DNA of 64,000 bases from a virus. Both the position numbers and the translations under genes were made by a program. The notes beneath the pieces were generated by a model that saw only the letters and a program-made list of their open reading frames with translations, did not search any database and was not told the DNA's origin. Shown piece after piece: positions 47,871 through 64,000 of this stretch. Every line of letters begins with the position of its first letter. The first letter of the stretch is position 1. The stretch lies in IMG/VR virus record IMGVR_UViG_3300028833_000003; one strand, given 5' to 3'.

Positions 47871-47905
47871 CTTATTGAAATCAATACGAAAGAGATGATG
47901 ACAAA

Positions 47906-48481: not shown

Positions 48482-48489
48482 AAAAGGGA

Positions 48490-48518: not shown

Positions 48519-48544
48519 AATGGTGTTGAAAGGAGCTGATAAAC

Positions 48545-48694: not shown

Positions 48695-48704
48695 TACACA
48701 CCTA

Positions 48705-48733
48705 TTGACAAATTTAAAAAAATGTGATATAAT
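48705..48733 (+). promoter_or_regulatory. promoter P24
   Basis: TTGACA, 17 nt, TGa+TATAAT. Confidence 0.8.
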
Positions 48734-48765
48734 AATTATAGAAAATCAGAAAGGAAGTGTGCGTA

Positions 48766-49215: not shown

Positions 49216-49262
49216 GCGGTGCTTTTTTTCGGCCCGGGCCAAAAATTTTTTTCGCAAACCTA

Positions 49263-49291
49263 TTGACAAACCTCTTTCAGAGTGCTATAAT
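49263..49291 (+). promoter_or_regulatory. promoter P25 (sole promoter for the five genes 49328-50495)
   Basis: TTGACA, 17 nt, TGc+TATAAT. Leader hairpin GTTCCAAGGGAAC at 49298-49310. Confidence 0.8.
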
Positions 49292-49327
49292 AACATTGTT
49301 CCAAGGGAACAGAAAGGAAGTAAAATT

Positions 49328-49564
49328 ATGAAACCTATCAAAATTGCTGGCACTGTCTTTGATGCTGATGCACTTTCTATTGAAGCAATTGATGCGTTAA
49401 TTGAAAAACTTGAAGAAGCAAAATGCACACAACGCCGCAAAAAGGCAGAAGAATACGCAGAGAAAATTCATAACTTAATTATCGAAGCAAAACAGCAAGA
49501 TTTAAATGTGATGATTGACAATGAATGGATCCCTGATGATTTCAGAGTTGATGTTTATATCTGA
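49328..49564 (+). CDS. hypothetical early protein (78 aa)
   Basis: GAAAGGAAG RBS. Confidence 0.7.
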   Translation: MKPIKIAGTVFDADALSIEAIDALIEKLEEAKCTQRRKKAEEYAEKIHNLIIEAKQQDLNVMIDNEWIPDDFRVDVYI

Positions 49565-49599
49565 TAATACAAATAAGCAATAGAAAGGAAATAAAAGCA

Positions 49600-49815
49600 A
49601 TGTATAAAACAACTTGGATGATCACTGATGAAAGTGATGAAGGCACATTCCAGACAGAGCTGACCTTGTATCATTTTGGCAAGCGTCCCAAGTTCCCTCG
49701 CTGGTACATGGGAGAAAATCATTCTTATCAGATTGAAATGATTTGGAATTTCCATCTGATTGTTCGCCCTTCTATTTTCTTTAAATGCCTGACCCATCAA
49801 TACATTATCAGATGA
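49600..49815 (+). CDS. hypothetical early protein (71 aa)
   Basis: GAAAGGAAA RBS. Confidence 0.6.
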   Translation: MYKTTWMITDESDEGTFQTELTLYHFGKRPKFPRWYMGENHSYQIEMIWNFHLIVRPSIFFKCLTHQYIIR

Positions 49816-49830
49816 AAGGAAGTATCCACA

Positions 49831-50115
49831 ATGAGAGACGCGAAAAAAGGAACTTATAATGATAGTTATACTTATTGCCCTGTTAATGCGTATGGAGATT
49901 GTCCTTACTGTGACCAAAGTGATGTATGCCACATCGATGATCCTCTCAAAGATTGCGATGACTGGGGCGCGTTTTGGGAGAGCTGGGAAGACTGGCTAAA
50001 CGCTGATGATGCAAACCCTGATGCACCAGAGGATTTTGCGGAAGATGAAATCCGCTGGGCTGGTGATGTGTATGGCTATGAAGATACAATGGAGGACAAC
50101 AATGAATACTTATGA
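49831..50115 (+). CDS. very acidic, Trp-rich small protein with an N-terminal Cys cluster (94 aa)
   Basis: GAAAGGAAG RBS. CPxxxxxxCPYC...C...C, followed by a D/E/W-rich tail. Confidence 0.7.
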   Translation: MRDAKKGTYNDSYTYCPVNAYGDCPYCDQSDVCHIDDPLKDCDDWGAFWESWEDWLNADDANPDAPEDFAEDEIRWAGDVYGYEDTMEDNNEYL

Positions 50116-50275
50116 AATCATGATTAATTATCTTAACTATGTATTTCCAAACAGAAAATTTAGTAAAGAATATTTAGACATCCTTTACGCTATCTTTATA
50201 AAGGGATATGGCGAAGGCGAACTCGCGGGAGAAATTGAAGCAAATAAATATTGGAGCGAAAGGAAAGAAAAATAA
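50102..50275 (+). CDS. hypothetical early protein (57 aa)
   Basis: ATG lies 5 nt after GGAGGA and overlaps the upstream gene by 14 nt. Confidence 0.5.
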   Translation: MNTYEIMINYLNYVFPNRKFSKEYLDILYAIFIKGYGEGELAGEIEANKYWSERKEK

Positions 50276-50279
50276 ATAA

Positions 50280-50495
50280 ATGTATAATTATAATAATGAC
50301 CCATTTGCGAAGGGCACACAAAAATATCAACAAGAGATAGTCGCAAAAGCATTAAATGACCATTTGCTCAAATGTGTTAAAAATAGTTATTGGTGCGCTC
50401 ATTGCTCTCTAAATCATAGTGGCATCTGCTTTTTTGCAAAAGAATGTTTTGAGAATGATCGAAAATATTATAGAGAAGATGATGAGGAGGAATAA
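50280..50495 (+). CDS. Cys-rich small protein (71 aa)
   Basis: ORF with a weak AAGGAAAG RBS and an acidic C-terminus. Confidence 0.55.
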   Translation: MYNYNNDPFAKGTQKYQQEIVAKALNDHLLKCVKNSYWCAHCSLNHSGICFFAKECFENDRKYYREDDEEE

Positions 50496-50535
50496 ACTTC
50501 TCATTTTGCCCGGGCCAAAAAATTTCAAAAAAGTA

Positions 50536-50564
50536 TTGACAAGCTGAAACAAATGCTGTATAAT
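50536..50564 (+). promoter_or_regulatory. promoter P26
   Basis: TTGACA, 17 nt, TGt+ATAAT. The leader GTAATCAAGAGGAGGTAATCAA is nearly identical to that of P27. Confidence 0.8.
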
Positions 50565-50593
50565 AGCTATGTAATCAAGAGGAGGTAATCAAG

Positions 50594-50746
50594 ATGAAGA
50601 CTTTGAAGGTGCTGGCTGTGATTGGTTGCTTACTGACTATCTGGGGTCTGGTGTGGGGTATCTTCATCAAAGATTTCATTTGGGGTGCGTTTGTTGGTCT
50701 GGCGCTAATAATGCCTTATCTGGTTTGGGGAGATGAGGAAGAATGA
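50594..50746 (+). CDS. small membrane protein (50 aa)
   Basis: AGAGGAGG RBS. Two hydrophobic segments. TGA overlaps the next ATG (ATGA). Confidence 0.65.
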   Translation: MKTLKVLAVIGCLLTIWGLVWGIFIKDFIWGAFVGLALIMPYLVWGDEEE

Positions 50747-50901
50747 AAAGAAGTCTTTACAAGCGTTATGATGATTTAGCCTGCTGGGATTTGGACAAAG
50801 GATGTAGGCGCATCATTGACCAGTCTCGACCTGGTAGGCGTCGCCTGAAAAAGGTTCTTCGGCGTCAAGCGCGCAAGCGGTTAAATCAGCGGGAAGAATA
50901 A
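50743..50901 (+). CDS. small Arg/Lys-rich protein (52 aa)
   Basis: ATGA-coupled to the upstream gene. Confidence 0.5.
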   Translation: MKRSLYKRYDDLACWDLDKGCRRIIDQSRPGRRRLKKVLRRQARKRLNQREE

Positions 50902-50933
50902 CCGCCCGGGCGAAAAAAATTTCTAAAAAGCTA

Positions 50934-50962
50934 TTGACAACCTATCAAGATGGTGCTATAAT
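50934..50962 (+). promoter_or_regulatory. promoter P27
   Basis: TTGACA, 17 nt, TGc+TATAAT. Confidence 0.8.
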
Positions 50963-50991
50963 AAGCATGTAATCAAGAGGAGGTAATCAAA

Positions 50992-51507
50992 ATGACTAAG
51001 AACACTTACGAAGCTCGCGCCTATAAGTTCGCCACTTTCCTTGCTCGTCTGTTTGCTGGTTGCTCTTCTCTGGAAGATTTCATGTGGGCGCTGGACTATT
51101 ACAACGCTACGCACTCTCGCAAACTGCGCTGGGCGCATGGTGTTTCTCGCATTGCGATTATCCGCTCTGACTATGTTATCAAGTTTAACATGGTGCCTGA
51201 TGAAGAATGGGAAGATGGTCGCGCTGGCAACTGCGAAAGCGAAGAAGCGGTCTATGAGCGCGCCTGCGAAGATGGCTTTGAGTATCTGCTGGCTAAAACC
51301 ACTGTTTGCACCATCGAAGAACACACTTTCTCTATCATGCCTCGCATTAACCATGTGAATGATTGGACACGCGACTGGACAGAGTATTGCACTGATGAAG
51401 AATATAACTGGCTGGTGCAAAATGTGAATGACTTGCATGAAGGTAATGTGGGATACAGAAATCGAAAAGTGTGCGTAATCGACTACGCCTGGGACGCGGA
51501 AATGTAA
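50992..51507 (+). CDS. atypical protein-kinase-like early protein (171 aa)
   Basis: Contains DLHEGNVG....VCVIDYA, which looks like a DxHxGN catalytic loop plus a DFG-like IDY, and an upstream VIKF Lys. The TAA lies in a hairpin loop (51496-51512). Confidence 0.4.
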   Translation: MTKNTYEARAYKFATFLARLFAGCSSLEDFMWALDYYNATHSRKLRWAHGVSRIAIIRSDYVIKFNMVPDEEWEDGRAGNCESEEAVYERACEDGFEYLLAKTTVCTIEEHTFSIMPRINHVNDWTRDWTEYCTDEEYNWLVQNVNDLHEGNVGYRNRKVCVIDYAWDAEM

Positions 51508-51595
51508 TCCGCGCCCTTTTGCGTTCGACCGCGCGCTGCCGGATGTGGCGCGCGGCATTTGCCCCACAGCATACCCCACACAATTTTCGGCGCGA
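51508..51595. repeat. GC-rich intergenic element, copy E5
   Basis: ...CGACCGCGCGCTGCCGGATGTGGCGCGCGGCATTTGCCCCACAGCATACCCCACACAATTTT... Confidence 0.5.
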
Positions 51596-51637
51596 AAAAA
51601 AGTTCAAAAAAAACTTCAAAAAAATTCCTAAAACCTA

Positions 51638-51666
51638 TTGACAAGACCAGCGAAAGCGAGTATAAT
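51638..51666 (+). promoter_or_regulatory. promoter P28, with no credible ORF behind it
   Basis: TTGACA, 17 nt, TATAAT. The transcript would start AATAACTGTCAGGAGGG, the same 5' end as P16. About 100 nt before P29. Confidence 0.6.
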
Positions 51667-51768
51667 AATAACTGTCAGGAGGGCAAGAGAACATCCTCTC
51701 CCCTGATGGCACTGGCAAGGACGCTCTGACAAGATGCGGAAACTTCAAAAAAAAGTTTGAAAAACCCC

Positions 51769-51797
51769 TTGACAAAGCGCTGAAAGTGTGATACAAT
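51769..51797 (+). promoter_or_regulatory. promoter P29
   Basis: TTGACA, 17 nt, TGa+TACAAT. Confidence 0.75.
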
Positions 51798-51856
51798 AAG
51801 GATGTCAAATGAAGGGGAGCTGATAAACCCCACAAACAGAGAAAGAGGTAGATACC

Positions 51857-52240
51857 ATGATGAACACCAAGATGACTAACAAGAGCGCTCTGTCCTTTGT
51901 CCTGACCAACTGCGAAGTGCCTGCGGATGTCAAGGAGCGTCTGGAAGCGATGCTGGCTTCCCTTGAAAAGCGTTCTGAGAACGCCAAGGGCAAGGAGCGC
52001 AAGCTGTCTCCCAAGCAGGAGCAGGAGCGCAAGGAGCGTGAGGAGTTCCGCTCCAAGGTGTATGAGACTATGTGTGAGAACCTGAACTTCGAATACACCT
52101 GCAAGGGTCTGGCTGACCTGTTCGCTGTCTCTTCTCCCAAGATGGCGAACGCTCTGACCAAGCTGGTTGAAGCTGGCAAGGTTGAGCGTCTGGTTTCCAC
52201 CACCAACAAGTCCAAGGTGTGGTTCAAGGTGGTAGCGTAA
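51857..52240 (+). CDS. winged-helix-like early protein, paralog 3 of 4 (127 aa)
   Basis: Divergent copy (…LEKRSENAKGKERKLSPKQEQE…SSPKMANALTKL…). The TAA lies in the GTAA loop of the 9-bp hairpin 52228-52249. Confidence 0.7.
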   Translation: MMNTKMTNKSALSFVLTNCEVPADVKERLEAMLASLEKRSENAKGKERKLSPKQEQERKEREEFRSKVYETMCENLNFEYTCKGLADLFAVSSPKMANALTKLVEAGKVERLVSTTNKSKVWFKVVA

Positions 52241-52297
52241 GCTACCACCGCCCCACCTGGGGCGCGCCGGGGCCGAAAAAAAATTTTTAAAAACCTA

Positions 52298-52326
52298 TTG
52301 ACAAAGCTTTAAAACCGCTGTATAAT
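52298..52326 (+). promoter_or_regulatory. promoter P30
   Basis: TTGACA, 17 nt, TGt+ATAAT. Confidence 0.8.
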
Positions 52327-52372
52327 AAACATGTTCCAAGTGAGAACAAAAGAAAGAAAGGATTTGATAACA

Positions 52373-53029
52373 ATGGCTTCTAAGTATAATGACATTTTTG
52401 GTGATACTGAGACGCTGGGTCCGCTGGATAGCCCCATCATTTACAATGGTTACATGCATTGCAGGGAAACAGATGAAGAAGTAAATGCACTGATTAATGA
52501 ATATTTCTTCAACCTTGAAAAATTCGCCACAGCGTATTATGCAAACAAGCGTCCGCAATATTTGGACGATTTGTGGGACAGCAAAATCTTTGCTGAAAAT
52601 TTTTGGGACTTCCGCAAAAAAGTGCTTGCCATGCTCAACCCCAATAAAAAGAACAGATTTTTCGCTCACAATGCGAGATTTGATGTTATGGCATTGAATA
52701 ACACTTGCAGAGCGTTAAGCGATGGAAAAGTGAAATATTTCTTCCCCTATGAAGTTGAAGTTTGTGATACTCTCAAAATGGCGCGTCAAGTTGTCGCAAA
52801 AATGCCCACCTACATCAAATACTGTCAAGAGAATGGATACATGACCAAGCACAAGACGCCCAGGGTTCGCCTGACCGCTGAAATTCTTTACAGATTTATT
52901 ACAAAAGATGAAGAATTTAATGAAGAGCACAGAGGGAAAGAAGATGTTCTGATCGAAGAAAAAATTTATGACTACATCAAGAGACAGCATAAAAAGTGCA
53001 ATCCTGCGCTCTACGCCCGCAAGGCATGA
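52373..53029 (+). CDS. DnaQ-like DEDDh 3'-5' exonuclease (218 aa)
   Basis: ExoI GDTETLG, ExoII FFAHNARFDV and ExoIII EHRGKEDV (H-x4-D). ATG follows GAAAGGA. Confidence 0.55.
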   Translation: MASKYNDIFGDTETLGPLDSPIIYNGYMHCRETDEEVNALINEYFFNLEKFATAYYANKRPQYLDDLWDSKIFAENFWDFRKKVLAMLNPNKKNRFFAHNARFDVMALNNTCRALSDGKVKYFFPYEVEVCDTLKMARQVVAKMPTYIKYCQENGYMTKHKTPRVRLTAEILYRFITKDEEFNEEHRGKEDVLIEEKIYDYIKRQHKKCNPALYARKA

Positions 53030-53081
53030 GCGCAGGCGGCCCGGGCCGAAAATTGTATACAAAAAAAATTTCAAAAACCTA

Positions 53082-53110
53082 TTGACAAGAACCTGAATCA
53101 GCAGTATAAT
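53082..53110 (+). promoter_or_regulatory. promoter P31, with no credible ORF behind it
   Basis: TTGACA, 17 nt, TATAAT. The transcript would start with hairpin GTCCC/GGGAC. About 130 nt before P32. Confidence 0.6.
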
Positions 53111-53239
53111 ATAAGTGTCCCAAGGGGCAAGGGACAGTCAAGGCCAGGTTGCCGAAAGTCAACAGAGACAATACGCATGGACTACAGAAACATTTGGCCA
53201 TTAGCAAACACAATGTGCGAAAAAAGTTTGCGAAACCCC

Positions 53240-53268
53240 TTGACAAAGCCCACAACCTGTGGTATAAT
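53240..53268 (+). promoter_or_regulatory. promoter P32, with no credible ORF behind it
   Basis: TTGACA, 17 nt, TGg+TATAAT. About 120 nt before P33, with no ATG after the AAAGGAAAGGGG. Confidence 0.6.
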
Positions 53269-53391
53269 GCAAATGTAAGATAAAGGAAAGGGGAAAAATA
53301 AAAAGCCACCCCAATCCCAATGCGCAAAAATGCAAGGCTTTGCTTCCATGTGCTTCTTACAAAGTCAAGAAATAAAAAATAAAAAAAGTTC

Positions 53392-53420
53392 TTGACAAAC
53401 ACCACAAAGCATGATATAAT
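53392..53420 (+). promoter_or_regulatory. promoter P33
   Basis: TTGACA, 17 nt, TGa+TATAAT. Leader hairpin TGTTCCAAGAGAACA at 53426-53440. Confidence 0.8.
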
Positions 53421-53468
53421 AAAGATGTTCCAAGAGAACAAAAGGAAAAAAAGAAAGAGGTAATGAAA

Positions 53469-53858
53469 ATGACTAACATCACCAAGAACATGAAGTACGC
53501 TGACATCCTCTCCATCCTGCATGGCGAAAATCCTGCCTATGGTTGCTCCATCGAAACTCTGACCGCTTTCATCGAACATGAAATGGAACTGACCGCGAAA
53601 AAGAACGCGGCTCCCAAGAAGCCTTCCAAGGCTCAGGTGGAGAAGCAGGAGGAGAACAAGGTTCTCGCTCAGACGCTGTTTGAAGTCCTCGCGGCTCATG
53701 GTAAGGATGTAAGCGTCGCGGAAATCAAGAAACTGGATGATCGCTTTGTGGATCTGTCCTCTCCCAAAATCACTGCGCTGTTGAAAATCCTGATGGATGA
53801 AAACCGCATGGTCAAAGATGATAGCGGAAGGGTGGCAAGGTATCAGGTTCTCGCCTGA
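53469..53858 (+). CDS. winged-helix-like early protein, paralog 4 of 4 (129 aa)
   Basis: The second ATG lies 8 nt after AGAGG. Close paralog of 47412..47777. Confidence 0.75.
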   Translation: MTNITKNMKYADILSILHGENPAYGCSIETLTAFIEHEMELTAKKNAAPKKPSKAQVEKQEENKVLAQTLFEVLAAHGKDVSVAEIKKLDDRFVDLSSPKITALLKILMDENRMVKDDSGRVARYQVLA

Positions 53859-53910
53859 TACCTCCGCCCCTCGCGGGCCCGGGCGCGAAAAAAACATTTT
53901 CAAAAAGGTA

Positions 53911-53939
53911 TTGACAAGCTGATTGCAAGGTGCTATAAT
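53911..53939 (+). promoter_or_regulatory. promoter P34
   Basis: TTGACA, 17 nt, TGc+TATAAT. Confidence 0.8.
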
Positions 53940-53967
53940 AGAACCATCGAAAGGAGCTGATGACAGT

Positions 53968-54396
53968 ATGACGAAGGAACAGTACATTGAACAGTATCTC
54001 GATGAGTATGAGCGCAAGCACCCTGATGAACGAATTGATTATGAAAAGTTGCGTGAGCAGGCTGACTGTGAATGGTATGACAAGCAGGTAGATGCAGGCA
54101 AGAAGACTGAATACGATTTGACCAAGGAGCAAGAGAAGGAAGCCAAGAAGGCTCGACAGTATGCCAAGTCTGACAAGGAGCGCAAGAAGGTTGTGCGGGA
54201 GCGCAAGCCTGATGAGGACAAGCGCGAAATCATCGAAGTCATTGCACAGAATTTGAAGCGCGTTTGTACTGAGGATGACCAAATGGCAAAGGAAATCACT
54301 GTTGTAAATCCTGAGCGTGAAGTCACCTTTATTTTGCGGGGCGTTGAATACAGCGTCCAGGTTATCAAGCATAGACCGCCCAAGGCCCCTCAGTGA
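53968..54396 (+). CDS. early protein, family B paralog 2 of 2 (142 aa)
   Basis: ATG follows GAAAGGAG. The TGA lies within hairpin 54384-54402. Confidence 0.7.
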   Translation: MTKEQYIEQYLDEYERKHPDERIDYEKLREQADCEWYDKQVDAGKKTEYDLTKEQEKEAKKARQYAKSDKERKKVVRERKPDEDKREIIEVIAQNLKRVCTEDDQMAKEITVVNPEREVTFILRGVEYSVQVIKHRPPKAPQ

Positions 54397-54432
54397 GGGG
54401 CCGCCCGGGCGAAAAAAAATTTTTAAAAAGTA

Positions 54433-54461
54433 TTGACAAGTGCGCGAATGGATGCTATAAT
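54433..54461 (+). promoter_or_regulatory. promoter P35
   Basis: TTGACA, 17 nt, TGc+TATAAT. Leader hairpin at 54467-54484. Confidence 0.8.
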
Positions 54462-54500
54462 AATGGTGTTCCAAGAGAGAACAGAAAGGGCTGATAAAGA

Positions 54501-54731
54501 ATGTGTGATTGTGTAGCAAGTGCAATGTTAAATGATTACGAGCGACAAGCATGGACCTTTATCGAAAAGGGAACCCGCATCATTAAACTTTGCACAGAAT
54601 TAAGACAATTAAATTGTAACAAAGAAACTGTTGATTTTGCTTTGGTGTGGTTAGAACGCTCAAAGAAAACTCCTGAGGAAATTATTCAAATGGTCAAGCT
54701 CTATCACAAAGATTTGGAGGATGAAAAATGA
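54501..54731 (+). CDS. hypothetical early protein (76 aa)
   Basis: GAAAGGG RBS. ATGA overlap with the next gene. Confidence 0.7.
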   Translation: MCDCVASAMLNDYERQAWTFIEKGTRIIKLCTELRQLNCNKETVDFALVWLERSKKTPEEIIQMVKLYHKDLEDEK

Positions 54732-54937
54732 ATATTGTGGCGCGTGGGTATAGCATTTCACTGAACAAAGAGGAAGAAAATTTTACAAACAAGATAGTCG
54801 ATTTTGTTGATAAGCTGGAAAAGGAAATCTTTGAAGCTGGTGCATTACCTCCTGATGATTTGCAAACAGTTTTTGATGCTTTAAGAGATAACGCCTGCAA
54901 GCTCAGAGACAATGAATTTTATGATGAAGGAGAATAA
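54728..54937 (+). CDS. hypothetical early protein (69 aa)
   Basis: Translationally coupled (ATGA). A GGAGGA lies inside the upstream gene. Confidence 0.65.
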   Translation: MNIVARGYSISLNKEEENFTNKIVDFVDKLEKEIFEAGALPPDDLQTVFDALRDNACKLRDNEFYDEGE

Positions 54938-54945
54938 AAAAAGTA

Positions 54946-54974
54946 TTGACAATCCTTCCCACCTGTGTTATAAT
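54946..54974 (+). promoter_or_regulatory. promoter P36
   Basis: TTGACA, 17 nt, TGt+TATAAT. Leader hairpin at 54980-54996. Confidence 0.8.
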
Positions 54975-55016
54975 GAACATGTTCCAAGAGAGAACAAAAG
55001 AAAGGAAAGATAAACT

Positions 55017-55217
55017 ATGAATGAAGAGCGTTGCCCATATTGCCAATCTGAAAACTTCATCACTGATGATTATGAAGAAGATTATGCCGAACAGGATAAA
55101 ATCACCTTGTACTGGAAATGCAAATGCAACAACTGCGGTAAAGAATTTCACATCCAAGAATGGTACAAGTTACAGCGCAAAACCATCTCGACCGCGGAAC
55201 AGTGGGAGGAAGAATAA
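55017..55217 (+). CDS. zinc-ribbon small protein (66 aa)
   Basis: CPYC...CNNC. GAAAGGAAAG RBS. Confidence 0.7.
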   Translation: MNEERCPYCQSENFITDDYEEDYAEQDKITLYWKCKCNNCGKEFHIQEWYKLQRKTISTAEQWEEE

Positions 55218-55418
55218 ATGACTATCCAGCGTCGCATTGTATTAGATGATGAAGAACAGAACCTGATTACTCAGGTGGATGATTTGATTACTCAGGTTTA
55301 TAATGAATTAGATTCCTCTGATAAGGAGGGCCTCAAAAAGATAATGGCTTTAACAAATGCGTTAGCCGATTTCGCCTATGATTATGGGTCTGATGACTAT
55401 CGAAGTGGGTGCCTGTGA
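55218..55418 (+). CDS. hypothetical acidic early protein (66 aa)
   Basis: ATG directly follows the upstream TAA. A GGGAGGA lies in the upstream gene. Confidence 0.65.
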   Translation: MTIQRRIVLDDEEQNLITQVDDLITQVYNELDSSDKEGLKKIMALTNALADFAYDYGSDDYRSGCL

Positions 55419-55419
55419 C

Positions 55420-55510
55420 CGCAGGCGCCCGCTTGTTTTTCGCCCGGCCGAGCACCATACGTGCGCAGGCCGCAATTTTGTCAAGACTAACCCCACACAA
55501 TTTTTACGCA
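55420..55510. repeat. GC-rich intergenic element, copy E6
   Basis: ...CGCCCGGCCGAGCACCATACGTGCGCAGGCCGCAATTTTG...AACCCCACACAATTTTT. Confidence 0.5.
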
Positions 55511-55745
55511 AATTTTACGATTTTGTTACAATTCTGTTAATTTTCCCGAAACTTTTGTTACAAAAGTATTAAATTTTTGTTACAAATTATTAAATTTTTA
55601 TTAAATTTTTGTAATAATTGTAATAATTTTGTAATATTTTAAATTGTTACGAAAGTATTGCGAAATTGTTACAGATTTATTACGAAATTGTTACAAAACT
55701 TAACAAAATCGTAACATTTTTGTAACATTTGACCCACTTTTGTAA
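55505..55745. repeat. AT-rich TGTTAC/GTAACA box cluster 2 (homologous to cluster 1)
   Basis: TGTTAC at 55524, 55556, 55578, 55645, 55667 and 55689. GTAACA at 55711 and 55722. Shares TCCCGAAA.TTGTTAC.AAAGTATTAAATTTTT and AAATTGTTACGAAAGTATT with 44430-44462. Confidence 0.8.
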
Positions 55746-55756
55746 AAATTTGGCCC

Positions 55757-56113
55757 CATATGCACCTGGGCGGCGCGTTCACGCGCCATATGCGCCGCGC
55801 CCACGAATTAATGCTAATGCTACACTCATATGCGCCGAAAATGCGGCATCCGCGGGCACGCAGATAATTTCCCTTAATCCATATGAAATCGCCGCGTTTT
55901 TTCTTGCGCACGATTACAGAATCGCAAGAAGCACCAATGACCCTCATATGCTCTCATTTCCTGACCACGGGCGTAGCAAAATCTTCCCCTCTCTGAGCCC
56001 ATTTTAAGACAAAGGGAGCGACCCGACCGGGTTTTCCACTTATCTATTAATAACCCGACCGGTGCGCATACTTTTTTCCACACTACCGACCGGGTTTTCC
56101 ATAGTCCCATATG
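55757..56113. repeat. dispersed (C/T)CATATGC motif, six copies in non-coding DNA
   Basis: Copies near 55757, 55786, 55826, 55879, 55945 and 56107. Confidence 0.5.
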
Positions 56114-56296
56114 CCTAACCCGACCGCATTCTATATATTTATTCACTTTGCTCACAATTCTTTAATAAATATACACCTACCCGACCGGGTTATACACAAA
56201 AAAGCGGGCTATCTACAATACTGTAAATAACCCGTTCCACTTTATATATGTAATTTTACTCAGATAACTCAAAGTATTGTGAATAACCCGACCGGT
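56018..56296 (+). repeat. direct-repeat array of ACCCGACCGG
   Basis: Exact copies at 56021, 56053, 56179 and 56286. Variants at 56085 (ACCGACCGG), 56118 (ACCCGACCGC) and 56229 (AACCCGTTCC). All share one orientation and are often preceded by AATA/CTA. Confidence 0.8.
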
Positions 56297-56307
56297 CTGC
56301 ACATTAT

Positions 56308-56335
56308 TAAAAGGAGCCACATATGTGTGGCTCCT
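56308..56335 (-). terminator. terminator of the leftward 175-aa gene (hairpin usable on both strands)
   Basis: 10-bp stem AGGAGCCACA/TGTGGCTCCT with a 4-nt loop and T-runs on both sides. Confidence 0.7.
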
Positions 56336-56945: not shown

Positions 56946-57029
56946 GACACATCCACAATTTTTAAGGACACATCCACAATTTTTAGATATGTATCCACAA
57001 TTCTTAAAGATACATCCATAACATGTTCA
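56946..57029 (+). repeat. four direct repeats with an exact 21-bp period and a DnaA-box-like core
   Basis: ATCCACAA at 56951, 56972 and 56993, and ATCCATAA at 57014. Copy 3 (GTATCCACA) matches TTATCCACA at 8 of 9 positions. Confidence 0.75.
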
Positions 57030-57916: not shown

Positions 57917-57945
57917 ATTATACCAAAAATTTTTAAAAAAATCAA
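57917..57945 (-). promoter_or_regulatory. minus-strand promoter (TTGATT-17-TGgTATAAT)
   Basis: rc -35 at 57940-57945 and rc -10 at 57917-57922. The block AAAATTTTTGGTATAATATAT is shared with 59234-59262. Confidence 0.65.
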
Positions 57946-58053
57946 TTTTTTGAAATCATTTTTTGAAATGCTCCTTGGGCTTACGTGCCAATTTTTGAAA
58001 TGAAATTTTGAAACCCCTACTCGGCCCCATTTTGAAATCATTTTTTGAAATGT
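57944..58053 (+). repeat. seven TTTGAAA(T/C) boxes
   Basis: TTTTTTGAAATCATTTTTTGAAATG occurs twice (about 57945 and 58029), with further copies near 57992 and 58005. Confidence 0.7.
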
Positions 58054-58063: not shown

Positions 58064-58098
58064 GGGTATAATTCATCACAAAGTGATGAATTATACCC
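58064..58098. repeat. perfect 16-bp inverted repeat with a 3-nt loop
   Basis: GGGTATAATTCATCAC-AAA-GTGATGAATTATACCC, preceded by GTATCCACC. Confidence 0.85.
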
Positions 58099-58132
58099 CT
58101 TATTTAGATTTTTTATTTCGCTATTATTTAGA

Positions 58133-58199
58133 TATTGGTAGATGTTTTACCCAAGTATGGTAGATTTTTTACCCATAAGTATGGTAGATTTTTTACCCA
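58133..58199 (+). repeat. three tandem ~22-bp iterons (GTATGGTAGATTTTTTACCCA)
   Basis: Units at 58133-58153, 58154-58175 and 58176-58199, immediately downstream of the Rep-like gene. Confidence 0.8.
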
Positions 58200-58246
58200 A
58201 TCGGCATTTTAGTCTACATATAATGCTCAGACCAATTTAACAAACG

Positions 58247-58798
58247 ATAACGCGGTGCTTTTCCATCGAAAAAATTTTCAAATGAAATCAAACCATTATT
58301 CTATAACACATCAAGAGCATTATGAATGGCCTATCTAGCCCGCGGATTACCCCCTAATTTTACACCCAAATGTTCTGCTATTTCTTCCTATGTAAATACA
58401 TAACCAGGTTTATATTTCCAACGTTGCCCTAAATAAATATATGTTTTAATAACTGCTTCTTTAACTGTATCAGTTAAAAACTAAACAGTAGCCAAAGGTA
58501 ATAATAAATAAATTTCTTCTACATTCGGCATAATATATCTATTATCTTCTTCAATTAAATAACCAATTTCCAACAAATAATTTAAATGAACACGCAACGT
58601 CTTTGCACTTTTTATTCCAATTTTTTTACATATTGCAGCCTATGTCGGTAAATCACTCTTCAAAACAATAGTGACCCCATCTTCTGGATACGACATAGAC
58701 TATAAATAAGCATATAATTCAGCATCAATGCGTGGGTCTTTCAAGAACGTAATCTCCTTTGTTAAATTAGTGTCAGCTGGAAAGCGTTTTTGAACCAT
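58247..58798 (-). CDS. winged-helix DNA-binding protein, candidate replication initiator/organizer (183 aa)
   Basis: ATG 58796-58798 lies 8 nt after GAAGGAGGTGA. Six in-frame TAGs. Stop is TAA 58247-58249. Two HTH-like segments. Iterons lie on both sides. Confidence 0.45.
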
Positions 58799-58852
58799 AC
58801 TTGTTTTCACCTCCTTCATAATCTACTGAAAGAGAAATAAGTAAAAATAACT

Positions 58853-58905
58853 TTTTTTACCCAAGTATGGTAGATATTTTTCCCAAAAATTTTACCCATA
58901 TATAA
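58853..58905 (+). repeat. iteron copies upstream of the Rep-like gene
   Basis: TTTTTTACCCAAGTATGGTAGATATTTTTCCCAAAAATTTTACCCA, the same unit as 58133-58199. Confidence 0.7.
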
Positions 58906-58925
58906 TATAAAAACGGAGTGAATAA

Positions 58926-59156
58926 TCACTCCGCATCAGTATCGTTTGCAATAGTTACATATTTAGGCGCGCGAGGTGGTCTCTCAGCCAAAATTGTATT
59001 CAAATCCTTTTCAAACTTAGGATTGTTGGCAAACACCCAGCAAAGAAACTCCGGCTTACTAGGATTTGGCGTAGTAGCAACCGGTAAATTACCCATTTCA
59101 ATCAACTTAGTCGCGATGCGGCGTGTGTAAATAATCTTATTAACATTCTCAGCCAT
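58926..59156 (-). CDS. small hypothetical protein (76 aa)
   Basis: ATG 59154-59156 lies 7 nt after GGAGGA. TGA stop. Faint resemblance to DUF5659-type small phage proteins (recollection only). Confidence 0.55.
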   Translation of the reverse strand: MAENVNKIIYTRRIATKLIEMGNLPVATTPNPSKPEFLCWVFANNPKFEKDLNTILAERPPRAPKYVTIANDTDAE

Positions 59157-59233
59157 TTTAAATTCCTCCATTATGCGTCTGGGCGCACTTCGTTAATGTA
59201 TTTGAAAGTTTTTTTGTCTCACTTTCTACATAT

Positions 59234-59292: not shown

Positions 59293-59325
59293 ATACATAT
59301 ACGATGAAAGAAGGAGGAATACCCC

Positions 59326-59499
59326 GTGATTAAAACAGAACGCATTGATAATTTAATTCACACATATAGTGATTAGGGCTTTATGATTAAGGCGCCAGAT
59401 GGCTCAATAGTAAGTGAAGCCTTTGACCTGCGGCCGCAGACATATACCGAGACAAACGTCAAAGCGCCCGCACACGAAGAAATTGACGAAGAAGCATAA
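59326..59499 (+). CDS. tentative 57-codon ORF that needs read-through of TAG 59374-59376
   Basis: GTG lies 7 nt after GAAGGAGGA. It would be 16 codons if TAG stops and 57 if TAG is sense (TAA at 59497). Confidence 0.3.
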
Positions 59500-59502
59500 A
59501 AC

Positions 59503-59531
59503 TTGATTTTTTAATAAAAATATTATATAAT
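59503..59531 (+). promoter_or_regulatory. class-2 promoter with conserved leader, copy A
   Basis: TTGATT, 17 nt, TATAAT. The block AAAATATTATATAATATATATATAAGATAAAGAAAGG is conserved with 62104-62141. Confidence 0.65.
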
Positions 59532-59565
59532 ATATATATAAGATAAAGAAAGGGTTGGTGGCAAA

Positions 59566-60321
59566 ATGGTAGCAAAGTCTTATCAGAACAAAGAAATCGT
59601 CGGTGAGCCCTACACTGTGATGCTTGACAAACGTGGCGCCGTCCAGTATGTAAAGATTAAGACGGGCCGCACCAATCCGGATGGCTCTCCCGTTATCAAA
59701 GAAGTGCGCTGGTATTCCGAAGAGGAATACTATAAAATGTATCCCCAGGAGATGCCGCAAATCGTCTTTGATGCTAAGAAGGGCTTTGGCTTCGATAAAG
59801 GTTATATTTGGATTTTCGGTGGCGATACTTATAGCGAACTGGAATGGTTCCGCGCATGCCCTGTAACTCGTTACGCTCGCCATTTCGGTTGGTATGTTGT
59901 AAGTACCGATGAGCTGCCCAACGATATTCCCGAAGGCGTTGAACCCATTAAGCTGATGTGGGAACAGGTGTCGGATGGCAACGACAACATCCTCGATGAA
60001 GATAAAATCAAGTCGATTGTGCGTGACATCCTTCATCCTATTGATACGCGCAGCACCTATCAGGGCGAAATTGGCGGTAAGATTACTGTAACGGCCAAAT
60101 GCACGATGTGCCGTGAGGTTTATGGACCGTATGGTATTTCTGTGCTGCACAATTTCGTCGATGCTAATGGTAATGTCTATGTCTGGTTCACTCAAAAGAG
60201 CCTTGAATCTGGCAAGACCTACACTTTCAGCGCGAAAGTAAAAGACCATAAGGAATATCGTAACCAGCAGCAGACTATTATCTACTATCTGCGTAATATT
60301 AAGGAGGTAGAAAATGCCTAA
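59566..60321 (+). CDS. 251-aa protein with an OB-fold-like C-terminal third (possible DNA-binding)
   Basis: RBS-like GGTGG precedes the ATG. The plus-strand product has ordinary composition. The C-terminal pattern G.KITVTAK....V....G..VYVWFT....GKTYTFSAKVKDH resembles OB folds (weak). Confidence 0.6.
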   Translation: MVAKSYQNKEIVGEPYTVMLDKRGAVQYVKIKTGRTNPDGSPVIKEVRWYSEEEYYKMYPQEMPQIVFDAKKGFGFDKGYIWIFGGDTYSELEWFRACPVTRYARHFGWYVVSTDELPNDIPEGVEPIKLMWEQVSDGNDNILDEDKIKSIVRDILHPIDTRSTYQGEIGGKITVTAKCTMCREVYGPYGISVLHNFVDANGNVYVWFTQKSLESGKTYTFSAKVKDHKEYRNQQQTIIYYLRNIKEVENA

Positions 60322-60664
60322 TTATAACATTACGTCTGAATGTATGAGTGCAAAAGATGCAGTTGCTCTTTCTAATAAGGAATACCAGCGCCTGCGGGAC
60401 CTGGTATTCCAGCTTTTGCGTAAAACTTTTAACGATGAAGTGCGCAAGGCCGCAACCACTGGCCTGCATTGGTTTAGATGGCGCGTCGTAGATAATAATT
60501 TGCATGTATCAACAGCCGTCACAGAAGAACTAAGTGATTTTGTGCGGCACCTGCGTGCGCTAGGATATGCGGCGGATGTAACTACTGGCCATTCTGGTGT
60601 AACGAATGGTTATATTTGCGCATGGGGCGAAGATGCTGCTAAATTGATTGAGGAGAATATGTAA
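60314..60664 (+). CDS. hypothetical protein (116 aa)
   Basis: AAGGAGG RBS inside the upstream gene. Confidence 0.7.
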   Translation: MPNYNITSECMSAKDAVALSNKEYQRLRDLVFQLLRKTFNDEVRKAATTGLHWFRWRVVDNNLHVSTAVTEELSDFVRHLRALGYAADVTTGHSGVTNGYICAWGEDAAKLIEENM

Positions 60665-60867
60665 TGGATGTATTAAAAATGACGGTCGGGCATCTTTCAG
60701 AAACTGAAAGTGAAGCTCTTAAAACTGCGGTTGATGTATTAGAAGAAGTCATGGCAACTGCGCAAGAATATAATTCTATTTATCATGATGCAGAGACAGC
60801 CAAAGATGCTATTGAGATGTTCATAATTAAATATGTTCGCAATAGAACGGACGTGTGGTTCAAATAA
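60664..60867 (+). CDS. hypothetical protein (67 aa)
   Basis: TAATG overlap with the upstream stop. Confidence 0.6.
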   Translation: MDVLKMTVGHLSETESEALKTAVDVLEEVMATAQEYNSIYHDAETAKDAIEMFIIKYVRNRTDVWFK

Positions 60868-61340
60868 TGAAATTTTATACATCATATTTCTATCAAGTTA
60901 GGTTTTTTCCACCTAATTTAATTCCTCTATCAACAGCATGTTCAGACCCAAAATGGTTTCACGACAATAAAGGTTTAAAATGGCAATTCAAAGATAAGCG
61001 CGGCGTGCTAAATGGACTGCGTGCCGAACCGTTTGTGCCCGGCTAGCAGTTATATGGATTGTGTCGCGGACCTGAATATTGTGAAACAATTAATCCTCAA
61101 ACGTGTGATTTTTTACGTGCTTATAAAGCACAATTAGATGCGTTATACTATGATAGTATAATGTATCGTTTCCAACAGTTGCATGATAAAATATGTCATG
61201 CAGAGAACCTTGACAATGTAGATTTTGCTCTTTTGGTCCATGAGGCACCGACAAACCAATGTAGTGAAAGAAAAACTCTACAAAATTGGTTTCTTTCACA
61301 TAACGTGCCAATTAGCGAATGGTCAAAAGATCAAATATAA
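60867..61340 (+). CDS. hypothetical protein (157 aa) containing one sense TAG
   Basis: ORF-track pieces 60855..61046 and 61059..61340 are in the same frame, separated only by TAG 61044-61046. TAATG start coupling at 60867. Confidence 0.6.
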
Positions 61341-61365
61341 ATAATTTATTTAAAGGAGAAAGTGT

Positions 61366-62034
61366 ATGAAGAAGTTTGTAGTTTTCATTATGTCTATTCT
61401 CGTCGCGCTGTCAGTAGTAATGTCAGCATCTGCGCTGACGCTATCTGGTGAAGCATTGTGGGCCATTAGCACCGAACAGCATGTTATGGGCATTATTGAC
61501 CCGGCTAAGGTAGAGCACTACTTTGGTCCGCAGGAACCTCCTAAGCCCTATGTGCGCGGGTTCCTTGAAAATGGCCTGGTGCGCGAGAAAGGTTTGCAGG
61601 CTTACACTATCAGCGCAAGCGGTCAGCTGGGTGGATTTACTACTCTGAAAACGACTGTTACAATTTTCCCTCAGTTTGAGGAAGTCGTTTATGGCCTAGT
61701 AACTGATAAGTGCGGATATGAACCCAATAGTGTAACAGATTATATCCTTGCTACTATGTATTTTACTGATGAGTATGTCGGTCACGTATTTATTAAGACT
61801 AACGTGCCGAAGTTCCATGTTGGTACAATTACTATTACCGATAAAAAGGATACTATTGAACTTTATATGGGCGACTTTGATCTTGATGGAAATATGGAAC
61901 TTGGATTTGCGCCTGGCTGGACTCCTTGTCAGCCCGCACCTAAGAAGTGCTGCGGCAAATGGACAGTTAAGTGCATTACTGTAACTCAGATTTGTTATAT
62001 TAAGCAGTGCTTCCAGAAGACTAAGTGTAAGTAA
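61366..62034 (+). CDS. secreted protein with a Cys/Lys-rich C-terminal tail (222 aa)
   Basis: AAAGGAGAA RBS. Signal-peptide-like N-terminus (..VVMSASA/LT). The last 39 aa contain 8 Cys and 8 Lys. Confidence 0.7.
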   Translation: MKKFVVFIMSILVALSVVMSASALTLSGEALWAISTEQHVMGIIDPAKVEHYFGPQEPPKPYVRGFLENGLVREKGLQAYTISASGQLGGFTTLKTTVTIFPQFEEVVYGLVTDKCGYEPNSVTDYILATMYFTDEYVGHVFIKTNVPKFHVGTITITDKKDTIELYMGDFDLDGNMELGFAPGWTPCQPAPKKCCGKWTVKCITVTQICYIKQCFQKTKCK

Positions 62035-62041
62035 TTTATTT

Positions 62042-62069
62042 GGCCGGTGAAAATCCGGCCTATTTTTTT
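62042..62069 (+). terminator. rho-independent terminator
   Basis: Stem GGCCGG/CCGGCC with a 7-nt loop, followed by a T7 run. Confidence 0.8.
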
Positions 62070-62090
62070 ATGCAAAAATGAATCATCTAT

Positions 62091-62119
62091 TTGAAAATTT
62101 TAAAAAAATATTATATAAT
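62091..62119 (+). promoter_or_regulatory. class-2 promoter with conserved leader, copy B
   Basis: TTGAAA, 17 nt, TATAAT. Conserved block as in copy A. Both leaders end in TGGCAAATG. Confidence 0.65.
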
Positions 62120-62152
62120 ATATATGTAAGATAAATAAAGGAGATGTGGCAA

Positions 62153-63955
62153 ATGAGCGTTTATGAAATCTTTAATGCTTATCGTATGCGTTACGCGACT
62201 GGTTCTGAAAATTGTGAGTGTTCTCCTGACGAAGTGTCTGAGGAAGTATTGCTGCAACCCTGGCGCAAAGCTAAGGGCGAATATCTGATGCAGTTGTTCG
62301 GGGATCAGCTTATCCTGGAACGTCCTTTCACCTATCGTCGTGGTGAGGACGAACTGCGCAATGATATGTCTAATTTCCTTGATCGCAACATTGCCATGTC
62401 TTTCCGCAAGATGATGTGGTCTAAGGTTTGTGACCTGCTTGGTATTGAAAGCCGGCAGTGGTATTGGAATGATGGAGTTCTCTTTGGTGATGTAGAGGAC
62501 CTTCCCAAAGAGTCTCAGGAGCGCGCTAAGCGTTATAAGGTGGCGCTGGCGCTTGAAAATGCGTTCAGCTTTGATTCTCTGATGGAGAACCATATCGGTG
62601 TGGATAAGGCAGTCTCTTGCAAACTGGATGATGGTCGGCGTATTTCCATTGGTTTGAATGAAAAGCCTATGCGCGTTATCGGTAAGTTTGTTAAGCTGTT
62701 CCCTGACGATACTGACATGAAGGAACAATTTGATAAGTATTGTGTTATGCACTCTCAGGTGCTGAACCAGAAGACGCTGAAAGGCACCATCTGTCTGTCT
62801 ATTCATCCTCTGGACTATGCTACCGCTTCTGACAATGCGAATGGCTGGTCTAGCTGTATGTCTTGGCAGGAGCAGGGATGCTATCGTATTGGTACTGTCG
62901 AAATGATGAATAGTCCTATGGTTATTTGCTGCTATGTCAAGAGCGATAATAACATGCTGGATTGGAATTACGCGAATAAGCATTATGTTTGGAATAGCAA
63001 AAAGTGGCGCGCTTGGGCTATTCTGGATATTCATCAGTGCCTGATTAATAAGCAGTATCCTTATGACAATGATGATTTGGCCACTTTCTGCCTGAACTGG
63101 ATTCGTGAGCTGGCGGCTGAAAAGCTGGGCTGGACTTTTGATGCTCCTAAGCTTATCTATGGTGAAAATCCTTCTCATCATGGCGGTCGTGAGATTGATG
63201 GCGGTTATACTCTTGTGTATGACATGAATAAAATGTATAACGACATCAACATCAATGGTGAAGGTAATCTTTGCTGTCTGCGGCATAATTATGCTAAGCT
63301 GTGGAAAATGCCTCAGCGCGTTCATATTAACGTGAGTGGCGTAGATCAGTGCATGTGTTGCGGCAAGGTGTCTAACTGGGACGACCAGACCGAAGGTTCT
63401 CTGTTTGGCACTTGCTGCGATGCTGAAAATGGTTGCCATTGCGCTCGGTGCGGTGATTACGTCAATGAAGATGACATCTATTATGGTCCTGATGATGTCG
63501 CTTATTGCCAGGATTGCTATAATGATATATTCGGTCATTGCGAAATTTGCGACAGTGATGTTGAGCGCGAATATATGAATGATGTAACTGTTCATATCCC
63601 CGAGGATATGATTAAGGAAGGTCTTGAAAAGATTAACGCCATGCCGGAAGTTGATGGATATTTCGACCTGAGCGATTGGCAGATTACCGATTATAGCCTG
63701 CGCAGCTTCTCTGTGTGCGACCAGTGCTGTAAGGATTATCATTGGAGAATTGTGCATGACCCTCGTCTCAATGGTCATCAGTTCTTTGGCGATTTTATTG
63801 ATACTACGAACAAGCAGATGGATGAAATTGATATTAGCATGTTACTGAGACATTGCGACCTGCCTGGCACTCATTATAACTTCCGTTTCAACCACTCCAC
63901 TCGCGAAAAGATGCAGGCTGTGTGGATGGACCTGTGGGATAAATACATGAAGTAA
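62153..63955 (+). CDS. 600-aa protein with a Cys-rich C-terminal third, function unknown
   Basis: ATG lies 9 nt after AAAGGAG; the ORF-track ATG 62144 abuts the RBS. Promoter upstream and terminator downstream. Multiple CxxC/CC pairs between about 63250 and 63740. Confidence 0.75.
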   Translation: MSVYEIFNAYRMRYATGSENCECSPDEVSEEVLLQPWRKAKGEYLMQLFGDQLILERPFTYRRGEDELRNDMSNFLDRNIAMSFRKMMWSKVCDLLGIESRQWYWNDGVLFGDVEDLPKESQERAKRYKVALALENAFSFDSLMENHIGVDKAVSCKLDDGRRISIGLNEKPMRVIGKFVKLFPDDTDMKEQFDKYCVMHSQVLNQKTLKGTICLSIHPLDYATASDNANGWSSCMSWQEQGCYRIGTVEMMNSPMVICCYVKSDNNMLDWNYANKHYVWNSKKWRAWAILDIHQCLINKQYPYDNDDLATFCLNWIRELAAEKLGWTFDAPKLIYGENPSHHGGREIDGGYTLVYDMNKMYNDININGEGNLCCLRHNYAKLWKMPQRVHINVSGVDQCMCCGKVSNWDDQTEGSLFGTCCDAENGCHCARCGDYVNEDDIYYGPDDVAYCQDCYNDIFGHCEICDSDVEREYMNDVTVHIPEDMIKEGLEKINAMPEVDGYFDLSDWQITDYSLRSFSVCDQCCKDYHWRIVHDPRLNGHQFFGDFIDTTNKQMDEIDISMLLRHCDLPGTHYNFRFNHSTREKMQAVWMDLWDKYMK

Positions 63956-63962
63956 TATAACT

Positions 63963-63995
63963 ATCCTCACTCTACAACAAGAGTGAGGATTTTTT
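63963..63995 (+). terminator. rho-independent terminator
   Basis: 10-bp stem ATCCTCACTC/GAGTGAGGAT with an 8-nt loop, followed by a T-run. Confidence 0.8.
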
Positions 63996-64000
63996 ATTTG

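Follow-up and report, generated by a model that had tools for sequence, protein, structure and literature searches.

The element described here lies in a 64,000-nucleotide stretch of viral DNA from the IMG/VR record IMGVR_UViG_3300028833_000003 (hereafter the window). It consists of a leftward gene for a tandem winged-helix (wH) protein together with the direct repeats, AT-rich repeats and hairpin that accompany it (Table 1), and it sits in a short leftward gene block (59171-56339) between two rightward early regions. An earlier note on this DNA had given the gene as 58247..58798, with 183 amino acids (aa) and six TAG codons. The start and the TAG codons stand, but nothing at 58247 ends translation in the gene frame; when TAG counts as a sense codon, the open reading frame (ORF) continues to the TAA at 58193-58195, and the real product has 201 aa and seven in-frame TAG codons (33, 53, 106, 137, 156, 166 and 195). 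Because the ORF ends at this TAA, the third downstream repeat overlaps the last codons of the gene and its stop codon.

The 18-bp core of the repeat, TGGTAGATTTTTTACCCA, is found four times in the 64 kb when up to three mismatches are allowed, compared with 0.07 expected; all four copies lie around the gene, and all repeat copies point the same way. Three tandem iterons had been placed downstream (58133-58199), and their cores were indeed found across 58136-58199; the one to two upstream copies (58853-58905) resolve into one full copy and two half-sites. The description of these iterons as 22-bp units is right for one interval, the other being 24 bp, and Tandem Repeats Finder reports the downstream array as 2.8 copies of a 24-bp period.

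Beyond the downstream array come AT-rich repeats, a candidate unwinding element; for ease of melting, the 40-bp AT-rich stretch lies at the 98.4th percentile within the window, with other stretches higher. The perfect 16-bp palindrome reported at 58064-58098 was borne out, with a 3-nt loop, as were the boxes adjoining it, five copies of TTTTGAAAT in 57948-58051. This box occurs 13 times in the window, compared with 3.9 expected. On the other side of the gene, the upstream repeat set is placed between the upstream terminator and the wH gene. No good sigma-70 promoter was found before the wH gene. The proximal half-site forms a -35-like TTGGGT, followed after 17 nt by a weak -10-like hexamer, and this pattern is kept in the window and in three related loci (L001, L004 and L005). 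TTGGGT and the -10-like hexamer presumably constitute the gene's own weak promoter, in which case binding at the TTGGGT half-site would plausibly repress the wH gene.

Table 1. Features of the module, in the direction of the wH gene, followed by landmark genes of the late operon.
Feature	Position	Strand	Remarks
Small upstream gene, 81 aa, no TAG	58926..59171	-	Own strong promoter
Intrinsic-terminator-like hairpin and T-run	58913..58934	-	Ends 81-aa gene; upstream module boundary
Upstream repeat set	58853..58905		One full copy with 2 mismatches (58868-58885); two half-sites TTTACCCA (58856, 58891)
Shine-Dalgarno site AAGGAGGTG, strong	58808..58816	-	9 nt before ATG; sequence reading
Tandem wH protein gene, 201 aa	58193..58798	-	ATG 58798, TAA stop 58193-58195; translation
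Downstream array, three direct repeats	cores 58136-58153, 58158-58175, 58182-58199		Spacing 22 and 24 bp
AT-rich repeats TTATTTAG (CTAAATAA on gene strand)	58100..58136		Period ~11 bp; abut last iteron
Perfect palindrome, 16+3+16	58064..58098		Window copy of the hairpin kept by position in relatives
Five TTTTGAAAT boxes (ATTTCAAAA on gene strand)	57948..58051		Partly paired at 13-bp spacing; last pair abuts next promoter
Strong sigma-70-type promoter (TTGATT, 17 nt, TGgTATAAT)	57917..57945	-	For gene 57880-57506; module end
Phage sigma factor gene	38972-40042	-	phrog_5767, E 1.9e-47
Large terminase gene	36052-37788	-	Late operon
Portal gene	34076-35677	-	Late operon

DnaA-box-like repeats had also been described as adjacent to the gene. 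This did not hold: with up to one mismatch, no DnaA box (TTATCCACA) is present in 57.2-59.4 kb, and such repeats lie further off, at 56946-57018 and 56003-56300. Given that there are none nearby and that the window-wide count is at chance level (25 compared with 20.9 expected), DnaA boxes were rejected as part of the module. The repeats at 56946-57018, which are probably those that the earlier note meant, are 3.5 tandem 21-bp repeats GACACATCCACAATTTTTAAA holding a DnaA-box-like (G/A)TATCCACA, and they sit between leftward genes of 148 and 175 aa.

We compared the window with 29 related loci (41-74% identity to the window protein) on metagenome and IMG/VR contigs of 27-201 kb. Direct repeats spaced 22-24 bp flank the gene on both sides in at least 26 of the 29, with one to five copies upstream and two to four downstream, the latter starting no more than about 70 nt from the stop codon. 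Repeat and protein vary together from locus to locus: the repeat is TTGGGTAAAAAATCTACCATAC in the window, L001 and L004-L006, GAGACAATTTTCCTACCATAG in L003, GGTAATTTTTCATA in L017 and L027, and CTTGGTTCGATGAG in L025. One locus, L029 (6490-8730), holds two tandem modules with paralogous genes; behind each gene stands a different 23-bp repeat, present four times. This pairing of genes and sites, L029 included, is the strongest evidence pointing to binding of the repeats by the protein. (The L029 modules are preceded by TTTCA boxes and a CCCTTCGGG hairpin.) Cognate direct repeats of about 17-22 bp, phased at about two helical turns and standing beside the gene, are a feature of Rep_3 iteron initiators, and such repeats are found in the window and in the related loci.

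The order of the elements is fixed across loci, running from iterons through CTAAATAAT repeats to a hairpin. In most loci the last iteron is directly followed by two to three CTAAATAAT units, 10-11 bp apart, and the sequence of the unit is constant even where the iterons diverge. Boxes similar to TTTTGAAAT occur at variable positions in L003, L004, L005, L007 and L029, and the 81-aa gene is kept immediately upstream of the wH gene in eight loci. Among 72,556 plasmids, a homologue was found in one, pRGI00117 (7.2 kb, HG796263.1, L036, from an uncultured bacterium; hhalign probability 99%), which carries the gene homologue, three 23-bp repeats, three CTAATAGTAT units and a hairpin in the same order. 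This plasmid also holds a genuine Rep_3 gene with three 22-bp iterons, the two cassettes occupying 1186-2099 and 5963-6850 of its sequence. The module is thus portable, but as the plasmid has its own Rep_3 replicon, it is not needed there as the sole replicon. On sequence comparison, the module is a conserved functional unit made up of a tandem-wH protein and its cognate sites, which the protein would bind sequence-specifically.

The related hairpins lie 90-200 nt 3' of the stop codon, one per module, and their stems of about 8-19 bp, folded with DNA parameters, are different in each locus. What recurs is the apex. On the strand antisense to the gene it reads GAGCGAAGCGA, CCGAAGG, GCGCGAAGCGC or GAGCGGAGCTC in about 24 of 30 loci (L001-L030), its forms including GCGAAGC, CCGAAGG (L001 and L003-L007) and GCGGAGC. 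The 'mini-hairpin' motifs GCGNAGC and CCGAAGG belong to the G4 complementary-strand origin (the related GCGAAAGC), RSF1010 ssiA (CCGAAGG) and the N4 hairpin promoters (GCGGAGC) (reviewed in PMC13037366). Flanking GA/GA steps on the antisense strand are able to form tandem G·A pairs, whereas the gene strand has T/C mismatches, so that a DNA reading of the antisense strand covers all apex variants. An RNA UUCG-tetraloop reading covers only some of them. We rejected the hairpin as an intrinsic terminator of the wH gene, since at none of the loci does the gene strand show a T-run behind it; the opposite strand of the window hairpin fits the terminator pattern, and no transcript is expected from that side. 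An N4-type hairpin promoter for a virion RNA polymerase was judged unlikely, given the strong sigma-70-type promoters of the early genes and the phage-encoded sigma factor.

Database searches with the protein gave sub-threshold, generic wH matches only, in both halves (Pfam, NCBIfam and PHROGs). LexA_DNA_bind scores 19.8 against a curated cut-off of 23.7, and MarR_2 19.2 against 27, so that both fall short; the most consistent Pfam match is HTH_36 (61 of 67 family members, best E 1.6e-8), and the weak PHROG matches are mostly to replication initiators and DnaD-like loaders. A sequence search of the PDB returned nothing significant, tblastn of the protein against GenBank phages gave zero matches, and a search of GenBank phage DNA with 57.4-59.4 kb gave a single 52-nt match only. 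The family is nevertheless sizeable, with 228 matches in a 90%-identity collection and 768 clusters at 50% identity (E ≤ 1e-3), and it is unannotated, having no specific Pfam or NCBIfam model. Many of its members are fragments broken at TAG codons. Two members of 305-314 aa (P0157 and P0161) have a C-terminal HNH or homing-endonuclease-like region, reflecting either a true nuclease fusion or two adjacent genes joined by TAG read-through.

An AlphaFold2 model of the 201-aa protein, built with a 67-sequence alignment, has a predicted local distance difference test (pLDDT) score of 91.7 and a predicted template-modelling score (pTM) of 0.86. It comprises an N-terminal strand, a first wH domain (WH1, ~26-101), a linker helix and a second wH domain (WH2, ~114-189), in agreement with the two wH-like halves noticed earlier and with sub-threshold helix-turn-helix matches in both. 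In a Foldseek search of the PDB, the top full-length matches were three 'isoreticular co-crystal' entries, which we take to be RepE54-DNA scaffolds, and 8ac8 ('Rep protein with DUE ssDNA'). These RepE-type and 8ac8 matches are weak in template-modelling (TM) score (probability 0.97-1.00, E 1.6e-3 to 1.2e-2, TM 0.42-0.46), and lower-ranked PDB matches are to tandem-wH proteins such as TFIIIC, Stn1, ScpB and ESCRT-II. Among the viral models in BFVD, the best matches are uncharacterised gut-phage proteins (TM 0.70), and annotated ones include a 'Replication initiator protein' (7.7e-5) and a COG5527 protein (1.4e-3).

Sequence methods give no link to the Rep_3 family. In hmmscan the protein gave no match to Rep_3 (PF01051 and PF21205), and Rep_3 is also missing from the 25 families that the 67 homologues match most. 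In hhalign, the family profile scored a probability of 0.2% against RepE and 0.7% against an alignment of 16 RepE sequences. The Rep_3 profiles did recognise the Rep protein of pRGI00117, which served as positive control, at 1.6e-33 and 1.8e-17. Homology to RepE is rejected on the hhalign result, Rep_3 membership fails by sequence, and the protein should not be filed as a Rep_3 member. Of the earlier label 'Rep-like', the modelled tandem-wH fold remains, with RepE giving the best, though weak, full-length structure matches, and family membership is not supported. By its model, the protein would have the fold class of iteron initiators, with Rep_3 homology not shown by sequence comparison.

The window phage, a gut phage, is TAG-recoded, because its leftward late operon (40-40042) is open only with TAG as sense. 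That TAG means glutamine in the 201-aa gene is supported by its alternation with CAA and CAG: at codons 33 and 53, the best-conserved TAG positions, homologues have almost exclusively TAG, CAA or CAG. TAG makes up 0.78 of the gene's glutamine codons (7/9; 3.5 per 100 codons), the highest such share in the window, and homologues hold 0-11 TAG codons. The G+C content of the gene (0.32) is like that of late genes, and most tallied early-region genes have no TAG. Published surveys found that recoded stop codons cluster in late and lysis genes, with variable recoding among replication genes (bioRxiv 10.1101/2021.08.26.457843). A cell that uses the standard code would stop translating the wH gene at codon 33. 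Because seven of its nine glutamine codons are TAG, the protein should be makeable only once the phage's TAG suppression is active, from which we infer the timing of its expression relative to that suppression.

By analogy, the layout of the module resembles that of mini-F and P1, and its order of iterons, AT-rich segment and hairpin resembles that of RSF1010. The same tools, run on mini-F repE, locate four iterons before the gene and five more from 2 nt past its stop codon, so the parallel is a measured one. As in mini-F ori2-repE-incC and P1 oriR-repA-incA, a gene for a two-wH protein is flanked by its own repeat arrays phased at about 22 bp; as in mini-F, the upstream set overlaps the gene's putative promoter region, the downstream set comes right after the stop, and RepE structures are the best full-length PDB matches of the protein. 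The differences are also clear. The window protein has no detectable Rep_3 sequence relationship and is shorter than that of mini-F (201 compared with 251 aa), both arrays are co-oriented whereas they are opposite in F, the AT-rich element is downstream of the gene and not upstream, no DnaA boxes accompany it within 57.2-59.4 kb, and the host of the module is a phage of roughly 130-200 kb, not a plasmid as for mini-F and P1. The architecture of an iteron-controlled replicon, as first proposed, survives in that the gene is flanked by its own repeats, conserved and laid out like the measured mini-F.

With the oriV of the IncQ plasmid RSF1010, the module shares a succession of iterons, AT-rich segment and hairpin, the last a putative single-strand initiation signal in the module, and the ssiA cap CCGAAGG is the hairpin apex in L001 and L003-L007 (PMC13037366). 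It differs from RSF1010 in having a single hairpin per module rather than two on opposite strands, in keeping the putative initiator gene inside the module, in showing no recognised RepB'-type primase or RepA helicase in the window, and in the AAA/TTT loop of the window hairpin. Lambda O and ori-lambda, and the origins of Firmicutes phages and staphylococcal pathogenicity islands (SaPIs), combine a phage-encoded origin-binding protein, phased repeats in or beside its own gene and an AT-rich neighbour, and serve lytic replication. The weak PHROG matches to O-like and DnaD-like initiators recall these systems. In contrast, the window protein consists of two wH domains only, without a C-terminal helicase-recruiting domain, and its repeats lie on either side of the gene, not within it. 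A true distant homologue is phrog_3396 ('ScpB'; Enterococcus phages VRE9_1-4, H1, EF1 and EF5; hhalign probability 97.5%), which is present in the cultured phages with the nearest terminase (47.8% identity). The VRE9_4 homologue (L037, 7001-7696) is a lone gene and, like the window gene, lies opposite in strand to its early-gene neighbours.

We reasoned that the module is a previously undescribed vegetative replication origin of a phage together with its initiator, the phage being a large TAG-recoded siphovirus that would infect Firmicutes. This is the best explanation we can offer, and we put it forward tentatively, with a little less than even confidence. The observed anatomy, conservation, protein-repeat pairing and fold would be consistent with the following course of DNA binding, melting, priming and timed expression. 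The 201-aa protein would bind each 22-24-bp asymmetric repeat as a monomer, each wH domain touching one of two conserved blocks, GGGTA or CTACC, about 11 bp apart. At the gene's 3' end, the three phased copies would nucleate a complex that melts the adjoining AT-rich CTAAATAAT repeats, and the long hairpin could then extrude from one strand and act as a single-strand initiation signal at which primase or helicase is loaded. The upstream copies, which overlap the gene's putative weak promoter, may serve in autoregulation or may pair with the downstream set. Given that the candidate initiator is the most TAG-dense gene in a mostly TAG-free early region, the origin might even be gated by the genetic code, its firing or shut-off being timed by the switch to TAG=Gln so that the replication mode is coupled to the code change; we regard this extension as a speculative idea that is probably wrong.

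Several observations weigh against an origin at this place. DnaA boxes are missing from the module, the AT-rich element is not the easiest-melting stretch nearby, and the window hairpin keeps its structure but, with a loop of AAA/TTT, lacks the GAA cap. The heavy use of TAG implies that infection begins without any of the protein. Neither hmmscan nor hhalign connects the protein with Rep_3 or RepE, and its predicted fold resembles RepE only modestly (E about 2e-3). Within about 18 kb, no gene could be recognised as coding for a helicase, primase or polymerase, the VRE9_4 homologue has no flanking repeat arrays, in contrast to the window gene, and on pRGI00117 the module stands beside a true Rep_3 replicon. 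Finally, the repeat-rich region at 55.4-56.3 kb could be the origin instead, or a terminus or another cis-element. That region (55420-56320) is a non-coding stretch of about 900 bp where rightward and leftward genes converge. It contains about 260 bp of AT-rich TTGTTAC/TTGTAAC repeats with 11-, 21- and 22-bp periods that form an imperfect inverted pair, six CATATG sites within a GC-rich segment, and six ACCCGACCGG units among which DnaA-box-like TTTTCCAC(A) is interspersed. It shows no nucleotide similarity to the related loci; in L001 the corresponding junction carries another repeat-rich tract, different from this one.

Two other roles would keep the cognate pairing of protein and repeats but dispense with the initiation of replication. 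The protein could be a centromere-binding or ScpB-like adaptor that coats the arrays and, without starting replication, places or compacts the DNA or brings a host factor to it; centromeres are commonly direct-repeat arrays beside the gene of their binding protein, as in F sopC and R1 parC. This would suit pRGI00117, which already has a Rep_3 replicon and carries the module as a second cassette, and it would fit the more distant family members that match phrog_3396 (E 8e-14 to 3e-5) and the annotation of the VRE9_4 homologue as 'ScpB'. That label is probably mistaken, as nothing we found supports it: Pfam SMC_ScpB is absent for the window protein and from the 25 most-matched families of the alignment scan, and the ScpAB chain 3w6j_E fits the AlphaFold2 model poorly (E 0.04, TM 0.25). 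Moreover, no NTPase partner or partition gene was recognised nearby, centromeres are not marked by a conserved AT-rich repeat or a priming-type hairpin, and the phages seem virulent and are seldom found in bacterial genomes, which together make DNA anchoring or segregation an unlikely function. A more radical variant would have a ScpB-like, sequence-specific adaptor load host SMC at the arrays of the phage DNA. A regulator of transcription that is produced after the code switch, autoregulating and repressing or insulating neighbouring early promoters through the arrays, possibly with looping, would explain why the family matches only generic winged helix-turn-helix regulators (LexA_DNA_bind, HTH_36 and MarR_2) and why the upstream repeats overlap the putative -35. 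It would also agree with a gene that is the most TAG-dense in the window among early neighbours mostly without TAG, and with a short gene block transcribed opposite to the long early regions on both sides. We doubt this reading as well: all of the generic matches are under the curated cut-offs, the sites are phased direct repeats and not palindromic operators, the downstream array is about 190 bp from the next promoter with the hairpin and boxes in between, and the conserved AT-rich repeats and capped hairpin would be left unexplained.

The earlier note had read the module as a plasmid-style replicon and had called a phage-plasmid or episomal lifestyle conceivable. The mini-F/P1 layout, the homologous module on a 7.2-kb plasmid and the lack of a recognised integrase in the window would all fit a replicon for episomal persistence, but origins with iterons are commonplace in lytic replication modules. 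A Pfam search of 40 neighbouring early-region proteins at 1e-4 gave zero matches, and neither a partition gene nor an integrase was recognised among them; the absence of an integrase thus stood as an observation but is uninformative, because the window is part of a genome only. The protein needs active TAG suppression, and a reading in the standard code ends at codon 33; both points speak against a replicon maintained in uninfected cells that use the standard code. Homologues are nearly absent from bacterial genomes, with just 4 contigs of metagenome-assembled genomes (MAGs) among 185,579 species genomes and 1 of the 72,556 plasmids; that plasmid has its own Rep_3 replicon, and, by terminase, the window phage is nearest among cultured phages to Enterococcus phages of about 140 kb. 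Taken together, these data make episomal maintenance quite improbable. Least probable of all, in our view, is a polar barrier in which tightly bound, co-oriented copies block replication forks or RNA polymerase from one direction, in the way of RTP and Ter in B. subtilis. RTP, a winged-helix protein, is encoded next to the sites that it binds, all copies here share one orientation, and the locus is near a junction of convergent transcription, but similarity to RTP appeared in no search, and AT-rich repeats and a capped hairpin would be unusual beside barrier sites.

The window itself (G+C 37%) points to the kind of phage in which the proposed origin would act. Its terminase is nearest to those of Enterococcus phages of ~134-142 kb (47.8% identity), Geobacillus E3, Phass-1 and SPbeta-like phages, its ribosome-binding sites are of the strong GGAGG type, and the bacterial-bin contigs with a homologue come from Clostridia and Erysipelotrichaceae MAGs. 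The sigma factor gene heads the late operon with its own consensus sigma-70 promoter upstream, and its product has a C-terminal zinc-ribbon or HNH-like tail. Four late genes on the same strand (within 25977-27098 and 30879-34063) have zero TAG and prefer CAG, and are probably those of the most highly expressed virion proteins; in their neighbours TAG accounts for 23-75% of glutamine codons. A 4552-aa ORF (10343-24001) with 103 TAG codons may encode a tape-measure-like protein. We set aside a reading of the module as a small terminase (TerS)/pac site, as the terminase and portal genes are at 34-38 kb, beside a separate 389-aa gene that could encode the small terminase subunit.

Dozens of small rightward genes fill the two early regions (40.1-56.0 kb and 59.3-64 kb) and are nearly TAG-free, one tallied gene having a single TAG. 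These genes (40100-56000 and 59300-64000) have a higher G+C content, mostly 0.40-0.54, mostly strong TTGACA/TGnTATAAT-type promoters and no Pfam matches. They include paralogues, four of ~125 aa (46118, 47412, 51857 and 53463) and two of ~150 aa (48766 and 53923), and these sets recur in 23-27 of 28 related loci. The 64-kb window contains no tRNA genes, and an Rfam search of 55.0-60.0 kb gave nothing credible. GC skew was rejected as an origin signal, because within the window it merely tracks gene orientation. In 10 of the 29 related loci (L003-L007, L014, L017, L018, L025 and L026) the wH gene is 0.3-5.4 kb from a contig end, compared with about 3.3 expected by our own arithmetic. This excess may reflect assembly breaks at repeated promoters or nearness to a genome terminus; as the break positions are inconsistent among the 10 loci, we draw no conclusion about a terminus.

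For the large phages of gut and rumen Firmicutes that recode stop codons, next to nothing is known of replication origins or of origin-binding proteins. The module is a concrete candidate for both, with a compact protein and cognate sites that differ between phages and would provide natural specificity or incompatibility groups. It carries a conserved capped hairpin of the type used for priming, and its gene would be an example of a DNA-transaction gene whose expression hinges on the code switch. If the origin reading is true, it would help genome annotation, studies of host range and co-infection, and the design of vectors for uncultured Clostridia phages.

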